A DNA stretch of 64,000 nucleotides from Macrostomum lignano (Eukaryota): contig NIVC01002596.1 of assembly GCA_002269645.1 (NCBI GenBank), forward strand, positions 94,885 to 158,884, given 5' to 3'. Each line of letters begins with the position of its first letter. Position 1 is the first letter of the stretch. The notes beneath the pieces are model-generated. The model was not told the DNA's origin. It searched no databases and saw nothing but the letters and a program-made list of their open reading frames with translations. Of the stretch, positions 58,464 to 64,000 are shown one piece after another. The translations under genes were made by a program, and so were the position numbers.

Positions 58464-59179
58464 GGGCTAGGCCATTTTAATAAATGGCTGAAATAATTGT
58501 CATAGTTTGCTAAAAAATTATTTACTTATTTATTATTTTATAGGTTATACTTAATATATTTATATCAAAGATAAAATTAATTTTGTTTGAAACTAATAAT
58601 AATTTAAAATAAGTTTTGAATGAAATAAAAAGATAAAATATGGATGTAAGCTTGCATCTTAAGCTTAAAAAATAAATGCAAATATGAAAACCAGGATGCA
58701 ACTTGCATCTAGGTCTAAATTTAGAGAAAGTATTCAATGAAGTTTCAGAAAAGTATTGAAACAATATATTTATACATGATGTTTTGTTTGTAACTTTTGC
58801 TAAAAAATGATTTGCATGCATCTTGATTTAAAAAAATGCAGATGCACAAGTTGCATCTAGTGCCAAAAAGTGGGTGCAAATCTAAATTTCAGGGTATAAA
58901 CTAGCAATCTAAGCAATCTAGTGTGGCCCCCTTCAGGGTGTCCAATAAGCAAGGAGCAAAAATAGTTCATAGAAAAAAATTAAAAAAGCATATTTTCTTA
59001 AGAACCAATTCCTTCACTTTTAAAAATCACCTTATTCGTGTAAAATTGTCATATAATATGAACACACTAGACTACTAATACAGCAACCTAGGTTCAAATC
59101 TTAGTAGTGTAAATGAAAGTAGTATATTTTTTTTAATTGAAAGTTTTTATTAAAGGACTAATTAAAAAGACCTGGATTA

Positions 59180-59395
59180 TGGCCCTTGATAAACCAAGTA
59201 TTATTGCACTTGATAAACCAAGGATTATTGCACTTGATAAGCCAATGATTATTGCACTTGATAAGCTAAGGATTATTGTACCAGGTACTTGATAAGCCAA
59301 GGATTACTGCACTTGATGATCCAATGATTATTGCACTTGATAAGCCAATGATTACTGCACTTTATAAACCAAGAATTATTGCACTTGATAAACTA
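59180..59395. repeat. 24-bp minisatellite (GATTATTGCACTTGATAAGCCAAG)n
   Basis: gattattg at 59223 and 59247. Confidence 0.9.
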
Positions 59396-59491
59396 GTGAT
59401 GGACCGAATGTGGATTTTTGCAAGTTTCCGAAACCGAATCTGAATGTACAAAAAAAATCCGAATGTTTCCGAATATAAGCAAAAAGTGCAA

Positions 59492-59590: not shown

Positions 59591-61121
59591 TGGGCTTATA
59601 TTCGTACTCGTACTTTTATCTTAAAGGTCGGATGTTATAGGAGGTTACGCGCCTGTCGAGTTAAGCGGCTAAATATGTTTGCTTGCGCCTCCTTTTGATT
59701 TCAATTAGCCTTTCAACTTTACTGGCTTTACTGTTCAATCGAAAGTTTAGAACACAAGTTTTTGTTCGAACGATAGTTGTTAGGCAGCCAGTTTGCTCGC
59801 TCGCAAGTTGGCCCATTTCTACTTTTCCGCACTTATATTTATACAACAAAATTTGCCTCAGTCAGCGTTATTTCAAACCAATAGCAATTGTAGCAAAAGA
59901 GTTCTAGATCAACGCAATTGCAAGAAAGTCTGGGAATTATTTTTTTTGGTGCGAAAGTTTGGATGCCTGCGTGCCAGTTTCATGTGAACAGCGAAATCGG
60001 ACAGCGCCGTTGTGCGTCATTCGGCGGCTCCACCAGTGTTGCAGCTGTATCGATGTCGCAATTTTGGGCGCTGATCTCAGCAGTTTTCGTGAGAGCCAGA
60101 CGTTCAGATGTTCTTAGTGCAAGCCAATTTCAGCCGGCTAAACTTTTCTAACTTTCACTCGTGCAAACAATTGAGCGTTGGGAAGCACAATGAACTCCTG
60201 CTGAACTGGTCTTGCTGTCCTGAGCCGATCGGCTGATTGTTGCATACTGCTGAGATCGTTGATGCTGCTGCTGCTGATGGTGCGAGCCGAGCTACGTTGG
60301 GTGTCTTAGACAAAGGCTAGCGTCCGCAACGTTGGGGCCTACTTCATAACTTTGGTCCCCTCGCTCCAGGCTCACATTGGGTCCTCTCGTTGCCGTCCAG
60401 CCTCGCCAGGTGACTCGACCAGGTGACACGACCAGGTGACCTAGCCTATCCCCGTTCCTAGACTTATGAGCATTTTCTTATGGCTCATATCCGCCCCTTG
60501 TTGAAACGCAGACCACTCCTGGTCTGAAAATGATGGCGTCTTGATCAGTGCTGGATATCCTCATCACGTCATTTGATTTGAGTTATGCTCCTTCGCGATA
60601 GTGTTGATTTTCTTGCTAGGGCTGTCGTCTTGGCGTCCACTTTTCACGCCTATGTCCCACCGCTAATCTAAAGGCCTAGTGCCTTACTACTGCCTAAGTT
60701 CAGTCACACGACACACAAGGGTTCTACTAACTATACCCTTAGTCAGGCAAACTGTCTCGCTTCGATCGCAGTGTTAGTCGAGACCAGGCAATCCCACTTA
60801 AAGGTACTTGCACGTGGAATGGGCATTTATACTATAACTTTGCTTCACGTGTAATAACTTTGTCTTTCTAAACTGTTTTCTACTGCAGGCGTTTTGTGTC
60901 ATTGTTATTCAATAGTTTGATGTCTCTTTATGACTTAACTCAACTTGCTTGATAATCCCATTTGGCGGACAGTAATACTCGTAGTTCATCTCAAAATATT
61001 GATAGCGTCGTAGATCTTCTCCATGGTAGGTCTCGTAATCAAACTCGTCCTCATACATGTACATTTTCGTCTGCTAATTCGCTTGGTGGTAAGTCCGTCG
61101 CCATGGATAGTCCATTCTGAA

Positions 61122-61630
61122 CTATCCCTCTACCCTCCTGTTGCTGTTAGTGTTGGATTTTGTCCCTGCTCCGCAAGTTGTATGCATGAGCGGGATGCTC
61201 TTCCAGTTCATCCAAGACTTGCGTGCCAATTGTTCTATATAGCGGCTTCCTCTGCTGTAGTGCCATTCTTCTAGGGTCCATCGGTTGGAAAAATCGGGCA
61301 AGAAAACAGATTCCTCCGGGTTCTGCATCTTTTTTAATCTGTCGACGTGTACCAGCATTGGTTCTTTGTTATTGTCTTCCGATCGGATGGCTACATTCGT
61401 TTCGTTGAATTTCCGAATCACTCTATACGGTCCAAAAATCGTGGTTGATGTTTTGCAGTTCTTAGTGGTTCTTGTAGCATGACTCTGTCACCTACTTGTA
61501 GAGTCGTTTGCTGTCGCCCCTTGTTGGCTTGTTTGTGCGTTCGCTTTTGTGCTTGCTGTAGATTGTGTCTGGCGATTTCTCGAGCTAATCTTAGAGCTTC
61601 CGCCTTGTATAAAGTATACTTGTCTTCTGC
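61122..61630 (-). pseudogene. Gypsy integrase C-terminal region (coiled segment, GPY motif, SH3-like end), frameshifted
   Basis: LRLAREIARHNLQQAQKR..LQVGDRVML..PRF / GPYRVIRKFNETN..MLVHVDRLKK; GPY codons at 61425-61433. Confidence 0.85.
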
Positions 61631-62550
61631 ACATGATGCATTCAGTTTTACTGGTCTCTGAAAGGTTAGCACATATGTCATATCTTCCGATTGAAACCAG
61701 TCCGTGTGCATGTATCCGACCAGTTGTCGTCCTTTCTAGTACTGGCATTGGTAATGTTCATGCACTGTCCATACCATCTGGTACAGTCTTGAACCTCGCA
61801 CTCAATATTCTCTGTCGTAGAAGTTTGTCACTGACCAAAGTCATTCTGGTAAAGTGCATTCTAGTGGCCATATTTTAAAATTTGCCGCTTTCTCGTCCCG
61901 TTGGCACTTGCTCTCCTTGTATTTGCATTTGTCTACTGGCACATACAACGAGTTCATTCCATTTCCCGAAACGTAGAATGGTACATTCGTCAACACAGTG
62001 CTGACTGTTATTTCTAATTTCTCTCCGGTCTTAGCCAGATTATCTAGGTCATTTCGAACCCATTTTTTCGTAGAGTATCGGCTGATGCAACCATCCACTT
62101 TGAGGTCTTCTTCCAATGTTCCATCTTCTGTTGTAGCTCCTGCATTCCACGAGTTACATTGTTCCACTGTGACTGTTTGTAGCTTAATTGCTACTGTCAA
62201 GTACACGAATACTGTTTTTCCTGCGATTTTGTACAGTTGCTGCGCTGTGAAATTGTAGTCTTCTCTGTGGCATATCTTCATGACACTTTTATGTGTCTCG
62301 GCGTTCTCATGGTGTAAAGTTAATTTAAGCTTTATCCGTCCATCTTGTCCTTCCTTTGGAATTTTGCAGTCCTGTTGTTCCGGCAGCCGAATTGCTATGG
62401 GGCTCTAATGTCGGTGCAAAATTTTGGACTGTCCACATATTGCGTGTGCATCGCTTCGATTTCGCAGAAACTTCCGGCAAAAATGAGCAGTCCCATCAGA
62501 ATCATTGGCCAGATTCGTAGGGTTTGTCTTGGCGCTATTGTTGTGTTTGC
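61630..62550 (-). pseudogene. env: Env-like Cys-rich glycoprotein ectodomain remnant (several frameshifts or stops)
   Basis: Hydrophobic WPMILMGLLIFAGSFC, then ICGQS, PIAIRLPEQQDC, TVTVEQCNSW..EDGTL, CKYKESKC..FKIW, CEVQDCTRWYG (sequons NIT, NAS, NWS), WFQSEDMTYVLTF..NASC. The order matches the Cys/Trp pattern I recall from nematode BEL/Pao and chuvirus-like envelope proteins. Confidence 0.65.
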
Positions 62551-62922
62551 TCCAGGGTTTTTTTTGTGCGCAGAGTGTGCGTATGCACCCTAAATTTTAA
62601 AATTGCACCCTGAAATTAAAAAAGTAGGTGCGGTTTAGGTGCGGTCTGTAAGATATTATAATATATGAAAAGTATATAAAAATCATTTGATCTTTGATCA
62701 CATTAAATTTGGCCTTTTTAATCAATGATGAATGATGATAATTTTAATTGGGGCGCAACGTTGGGGCCTACTTCATAACTTTGGTCCCCTCGCTCCAGGC
62801 TCACATTGGGTCCTCTCGTTGCCGTCCAGCCTCGCCAGGTGACTCGACCAGGTGAACGACCAGAGTGACCTAGCCTATCCCCGTTCCTAGACTTATGAGC
62901 ATTTTCTTATGGCTCATATCAT

Positions 62923-64000
62923 TGTAACAAGTAGGATTTTGTGTCCATCCTGCCTGCACCTTCTGCTCACGTCGGACAACAAAGAATTGAACTCGAAGCA
63001 CAGTATTTCTGGGCCCAGGCTGCTGCGGCCTACAGCCCAGCCGAGGCAATGGCCATGCCTTTAGGCCCGCTGATGCGGGCGAGAGGAAAGTGAAGCGAGC
63101 GCCTCCACTACTGTCTCTCCTTTTATTTAAAACACAGCAGAACATGCGTGTGGGAACGTAAACTCTTATAGGCTACATAGAACAAAATGCAAATTACGCA
63201 GCAAGTTTTAGGTGCAGCCGTCCTTCGCAAATATGACTGCATTCTATGCAGCTCATATCCCTCCATGGTTGAAAAAACTTCGACACCTCAAAGTATAGTT
63301 GAAATTTGAAACGCGCTTGAATACACCAGCAATGAGCTATAGCAATGTCGGACTCCTCCAGCCGGGTCGCTACCATTCTTCAATTCGCGCTGCTCTAAGG
63401 GGGTCAACCTTGAAGTCCGCCACCTCGGAAACGAGCATGCAGTCCTCGTGAGCTATCTTAAGTAGCTTCACTGGCATGTCCCTTGCATGCACAGATCGTG
63501 CTCCGGTCTTCCTGCCGGATGCATCGCAAATTTCCCTCACAGTCTTCTTGCTGTGGGGAGGCGACTCTTGGCCTTTGGGCCGAAACACTGCTCCACTTTT
63601 GAGACGCATCGCCTCTCAGGGCAGGAAACTTGATCTGCATGCCAGTCGCCGAGACAGTGACGCTGGGGCTGACTCTCTTCTTGTCGATCCATCCGAACGG
63701 CTGTTGAACACGCGTCAGTTGGGGCGGCGGCTGCACCGTGGTGGCAGTTGAACTGAACCACCGTTGCGACTTAATGCCGTCAAGCACGCCAACGACGCAA
63801 GATGTCTCCTCTGGTCGCCGCGATCTCGATCTGCTGATGTTGTGCTGTCCTTCAACCGGCTTCTATTCAACCCTCTGTTATCCTTCGTGACAGGAACTTC
63901 GTCTAGCAGACTCACGCGGTCAGGGAACCATTTAACAGGTAGGATTTTGTGTCCATCCTGCCTGCACCTTCTGCTCACGTCGACAACAAAAGAATTGAAC
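62923..64000 (-). mobile_element. Small non-autonomous LTR element (TRIM-like or internally deleted), tRNA-Glu PBS; 5' LTR truncated by window edge
   Basis: 62923-~62992 is repeated at 63931-64000 (offset ~1008). PBS TGGTTCCCTGACCG at 63917-63930 is the 14-nt complement of the tRNA-Glu 3' end. PPT-like GGAGGGATA then TGAGC at 63255, giving a ~333-bp 3' LTR and a ~675-bp interior with no recognisable domain. Confidence 0.75.

Follow-up and report, generated by a model that had tools for sequence, protein, structure and literature searches.

Near one end of a 64,000-nt stretch of the Macrostomum lignano genome (the whole stretch that was analysed, hereafter the window) lies a defunct Ty3/gypsy retrotransposon copy with an internal deletion; its relatives normally put a gB-like env before the enzyme genes. 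We hold it very probable that this is a decayed copy of the gag-env-pol kind, in which the join between env and integrase likely arose from the skipping of ~4.4 kb between short matching words. The features are listed in Table 1.

Table 1. Parts of the deleted element and of the neighboring mini-element, in window positions.
Feature	Position	Strand	Remarks
Separate non-coding LTR mini-element, 1.34 kb, 335-bp LTRs	62923..64000	-	5' end outside the window
5' LTR stub, first 165 bp	62754..62918	-	zero substitutions against the 3' LTR
Foreign AT-rich segment, terminated by the end of a very high-copy repeat	62553..62753	.	depth peak 62542-62658
Hydrophobic internal signal sequence before env (normally after Gag)	62464..62514	-	same position in related families
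Putative gB-type class III glycoprotein, N-terminal half, match to gB domains I-II	61605..62463	-	similarity to C368/C4628 env and structural alignment
Deletion junction, 7-nt word found in the integrase-bearing C20 copy, likely also on the env side	61598..61604	-	
Integrase C-terminal tail with GPY motif	61147..61597	-	frameshift near 61434; stop 61149-61147
3' untranslated region	60503..61146	-	no similarity to extra ORFs of relatives by tblastx against 20 loci
Polypurine tract (PPT)	60490..60502	-	
3' LTR, 854 bp, TAT...ATA ends	59636..60489	-	

Solo LTRs flanked by 5-bp target duplications served to define the LTR ends. The succession of PPT and LTR reported in the first-pass annotation was recovered, with the limits of the LTR refined from 60487-59633 to 60489-59636; the termini of the window-family LTR are not of the TG...CA type. 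The assignment to Ty3/gypsy draws on the LTR, the PPT and the 5-bp duplications at solo LTRs, on the RNase H-integrase (RH-IN) order of the C20 copy, in which tail and LTR are 98.5% shared, and on the full PR-RT-RH-IN order in relatives; the window family itself lacks RT, and the tree was built on RH-IN without named reference gypsy clades. The integrase tail matches Pfam Integrase_p58_C (E 3e-10). The foreign segment of ~200 bp has taken the place of gag and the primer site, and also of the 5' LTR apart from its stub. Elsewhere in the window, at 12400-42900 and 59160-59400, numerous tandem arrays occur, their units being 8-28 nt long.

The neighboring mini-element is TRIM-like, occurs in many copies with 5-bp duplications of its own and starts with TATGAG like the window-family LTR; its primer site is presumably tRNA-Glu-like. 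In the window, mini-element and element together are bounded by a single 5-bp repeat: the 5 bp after the 3' LTR (59631-59635) recur before the mini-element. The inner joint between the two resembles a primer-site start set against a PPT end. Composites of the mini-element and the window-family LTR were found at three sites, each within one target duplication; in the composite on C832 (L126, L138) 4 of 5 bp match, and in that on C1626 (L093) 5 of 5 match in inverted orientation. ARAGORN detected no tRNA beside the C1626 LTR. These composites suggest that mini-element and window family use one integrase and are packaged together, and two unprocessed cDNAs may have been joined end to end before integration. 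Such co-packaging would fit template switching, without proving it.

The env remnant

The env-like region comprises ~285 Cys/Trp-patterned codons on the minus strand; the hydrophobic, signal-like stretch seen in the first-pass annotation was confirmed and precedes it, from 62514. In the window copy it is interrupted by three in-frame stops (61843-41, 61804-02 and 61738-36) and is 34-38% identical to the env of the C368/C4628 families. A genome search with the 187-aa open env piece, in which all 138 candidates were scored, gave 130 matches at E<=1, many of them in frames of 1,000-2,866 aa, and the env-like signal is therefore not a product of chance. The claimed richness in N-glycosylation sites did not hold, as 2 sequons in 268 codons compare with 1.5 in shuffles, which is the chance level. 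Pfam searches with the window's own env pieces returned no relevant match; of the related families scanned, three matched the Pfam family Monjiviricetes_fusion (E 2.5e-8 to 2.6e-4). A signal-like segment precedes the env match in relatives and a membrane segment follows it, so that signal peptide and membrane anchor are both present there, the anchor being deleted in the window copy. A basic furin-like site was found in 6 of 7 aligned env rows of relatives.

A profile of 8 env sequences matches EBV gB (E 3e-11). The Foldseek comparison that had been proposed was carried out with an ectodomain model of the relative C368 and matched herpes gB (E 2e-19) and nyamivirus G (E 6e-25), together with chu-like and entomopoxvirus glycoproteins (best E of the group with nyamivirus 6e-25); the model has a mean pLDDT of 61 and a pTM of 0.39, TM-scores are 0.2-0.4, and C368 is 36% identical over the part kept in the window. 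Because the global fit is poor, the gB assignment rests on the agreement of profile and fold and not on a good model. Residues ~33-298 of the family model align to ~120-435 of HCMV gB (Z 9.1-9.5, about 9-10; rmsd 6-7), a part which we take to be domains I-II. The window env keeps approximately model residues 1-285; the anchor is gone, as are the long helix (324-369) and the domains after it, and no helix, furin site or membrane anchor was detected in the window piece. By these models the window env is the N-terminal half of a class III gB-type glycoprotein remnant. The viral fusion glycoprotein first suspected here is thus borne out as class III (gB/chuvirus/nyamivirus-like) by the profile and Foldseek matches of the relatives. 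A single-sequence fold of the C678 env part was too poor to use (pLDDT 31).

Two families, C247 (L069) and C1695 (L073), carry a Thr/Ser/Pro-rich, mucin-like insert of ~200-300 aa at the furin loop of env. The putative fusion-loop positions (columns ~85-115 and ~155-175 of alignment A1) are aromatic-rich in C103, C1470 and C717 and mostly polar in C368 and C4628, with which the window family groups.

Gene order in related families

Six long ORFs from six contigs place env N-terminal to protease and RT; five of them reach integrase, and in four the Gag zinc knuckle comes first, the single-frame order in the relatives being Gag, Env, protease, RT, RNase H, integrase. As related families in the genome encode this order in one frame, the position of env before integrase is native. 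A native layout of this kind, which the first-pass annotation had named as its alternative, holds both in the related families and in proteins from outside, and the env-carrying Gypsy lineage it expected in this genome is present, since long ORFs of relatives join env to Gypsy pol. Among 25 outside proteins, chosen for length from the 150 matches listed (a full HMMER search found 459), env precedes RT/RNase H in 12 of the 12 bearing these, and one env-first protein is that of the nematode Globodera rostochiensis. A word-indexed protein search with the env alignment gave no match at E<=0.001 in near or longer lengths. A variant order, with the aspartyl protease before the env match, is seen in the outside proteins P0016 and P0037.

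LTR pairs with 99-100% identity, located 10-13 kb apart, were identified in 3 related loci; the stretches were too short for pairs to be recovered at more than 3 of the 9 loci. One related family is 99.8% identical to a named Macrostomum lignano protein. The genome thus holds several divergent single-ORF gag-env-pol lineages, with env 21-60% identical. Extra ORFs occur after pol in some of them: in C717 (L083:7623-8420) the ORF between pol and 3' LTR encodes RING fingers (Pfam zf-C3HC4_3, E 5e-7), and C368 (L075:7303-8100) and C4628 (L079:7149-8027) share a visibly related ORF of 266-293 aa that has no convincing Pfam match. The latter ORF has no match in the window family.

Copies and origin of the join

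The whole env-integrase stretch is present at four genomic places (window, C1551, C2718 and C678). C1551 and C2718 were considered as independent insertions and rejected: with shared flanks and 0 substitutions in 2,912 nt they represent the same site as the window. C678 shares the join but lies between different flanks, diverges by 1.45% and has an open frame of 572 codons; as it lacks a 5' LTR, its standing as an independent insertion is read from the different flanks only. In C20 the same tail and LTR are located behind RNase H and the integrase core. The remaining LTR matches have no internal 3' region next to them; several of these are solo LTRs flanked by 5-bp duplications. The window family has only 4 close env matches and 1 close pol match. 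The proposed genome-wide LTR and env search for intact copies yielded the native order from relatives and no undeleted member of the window family among the candidates scored (env DNA 40 of 288, crowded by a repeat; env protein 138 of 138; pol DNA 17 of 17; LTR 40 of 95).

Missing at the join are the rest of env, the membrane anchor, PR, RT, RNase H and the integrase core, with ~150 last integrase codons kept. Identity of the DNA with C20 sets in at 61604; the residues ahead of that point agree with the C368 env strand LYKSE, so ~7 nt at the join could derive from either side; the junction lies at LYK(AE)ALRL and not, as first placed, at EDK|YTLYK. It is bridged by contigs of two runs from two studies (X2 and X8). 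When the natural fusion ORF of C678 is compared with a single named polyprotein, its residues 141-423 match 689-970 and its residues 422-568 match 2691-2851, in collinear succession, and the span between the motifs in the C368 layout is 1,482 aa, or ~4.4 kb. The env-integrase fusion is a collinear internal deletion of ~4.4 kb, shared by two sites with different flanks; the order is native, and the scrambling by template switching or rearrangement that had been assumed for this copy is not what produced it. The described run of env into the integrase tail is correct insofar as the frame is unchanged at the join, while the three stops break it within env; the GPY motif does not share the frame of env in the window copy, being preceded by the frameshift.

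The crossover likely took place at the 7-nt shared word, the env side of which we infer, since no undeleted env of the window family was found. A template switch of reverse transcriptase or microhomology-directed DNA repair would have skipped the ~4.4 kb between two short matching words, and the join is compatible with either. The join recurs at another, independent site, which makes it likely that the deleted form underwent one or more rounds of copying; this non-autonomous form would have been packaged and inserted in trans by the enzymes of a complete relative, and a later insertion would then have removed the 5' part of the window copy before it decayed. In complete relatives, the internal signal sequence would thread Env into the ER, signal peptidase would free Gag, a furin-type site would split Env, and the membrane anchor would return Pol to the cytosol, where the protease would release RT and integrase; Env itself may act as a class III fusogen. 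The window copy can make none of these Gag, Env and Pol products.

Between window and C678 we counted 42 substitutions, 29 of them C-to-T or G-to-A towards the window. Own changes in the three-way region of 1,925 nt number 18 at the window site, 9 in C20 and 5 in C678, and the codon changes between window and C678 are 4 silent, 11 missense and 3 stop; the decay of the window copy is neutral-like. Three small indels (near 62402, 62243 and 61293) occur in neither of the two same-site copies, and the contigs of 4 runs out of 4 speak against them; they are thus likely assembly errors. The variants seen over this region in one sequencing run, presumed to be RNA, do not resemble the window copy, and that run was left out of the evidence.

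The copy might also be a chimera in which the integrase tail and LTR come from a different family than env. In favor of this are the lack of an undeleted counterpart for the env side and the composites that the window-family LTR makes with another element at three sites; the env and pol trees, however, both place the window family with C368 and C4628 (supports 95/99 and 100/100), with env represented by C678, pol by C20 and long branches in the env tree. These common nearest relatives argue against a distant donor, a close sister being compatible with them, and we regard a chimeric origin as improbable. Soluble env restriction factors are known from mammals, and an invertebrate counterpart would be at hand if the in-frame deletion had been kept, the mobile non-autonomous element encoding a secreted, anchorless decoy of gB domains I-II that blocks the entry of related particles. 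Signal sequence and the two N-terminal domains are indeed retained in frame, and the 572 codons of C678 are open; yet the window copy has its three stops, C678 lacks a 5' LTR promoter and is so young (5 own changes in 1,925 nt) that its frame would be open by chance in ~84% of cases (substitutions only), which makes this a very unlikely explanation. Scrambling of a normal gag-pol-env element, with env thereby placed before the integrase tail, has the textbook order of retroelements (env after integrase) and the local join in its favor and nothing more, and deserves hardly any credence as env follows integrase in no ORF or locus examined and the fusion is collinear with single polyproteins. The collinear deletion within a gag-env-pol element is the reading followed below.

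Relation to known elements

Both the env-before-pol order and gB-type env are already published (PMC13524379, PMC6431247). Chary and Hayashi (eLife, PMC13524379) describe 'ancient errantiviruses' of the order GAG-ENV-POL, their ENV being of HSV/gB type, from Platyhelminthes, Nematoda and Bryozoa, by which the earlier premise that gB-type env belongs mainly to BEL/Pao and follows integrase is out of date. By order and predicted fold the window element belongs with these GAG-ENV-POL gB-type elements: the pol is of Ty3/gypsy type and the gB-type env lies between gag and pol in the nearest relatives, gag being lost in the window copy. The sole M. lignano entry listed there has the primer site of the C717 family. 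The window family is a different one, with a pol 37-40% identical to that of C717/C1470. Known as fragments, solo LTRs and a deleted form, the window family falls outside the 'intact' class as that source describes it (two LTRs enclosing gag, env and pol without interruption). The word 'polyprotein' is absent from the main text of PMC13524379, and env is not discussed in the accessible part of PMC12801592.

Burro/GYPSM1 of Schmidtea mediterranea, the single polyprotein of which includes env in frame, with gag before and pol after it, is termed the first such case by Arkhipova and Yushenova (2019, PMC6431247), and its env matches mononegavirus fusion glycoproteins. As described there, Burro differs in its ~30 kb, ~4,900-aa ORF and many cargo domains, whereas the relatives found here measure 11-13 kb with ORFs of up to 2,866 aa. 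Non-canonical nematode ERVs also have env before pol (Sacco et al. 2022, as cited in PMC13524379). The G. rostochiensis protein shows the same order, with pol ~29% identical and in a separate clade. Herpesvirus gB and nyamivirus/chuvirus-like G resemble the env studied here in profile and fold, at 10-15% identity; the window copy retains the N-terminal half only. Env-bearing BEL/Pao elements (Tas, Anakin) differ, as the elements described here have a gypsy-type Pfam set with no Pao families matched, and env before pol.

The window copy is a deletion scar in a dead element, and the locus adds little. Its host is a tractable model for testing how such a polyprotein crosses the ER and is cut, and whether particles pass between cells, a test to which this locus contributes nothing special. 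The M. lignano genome contains more gag-env-pol lineages than the one entry listed for it in PMC13524379.
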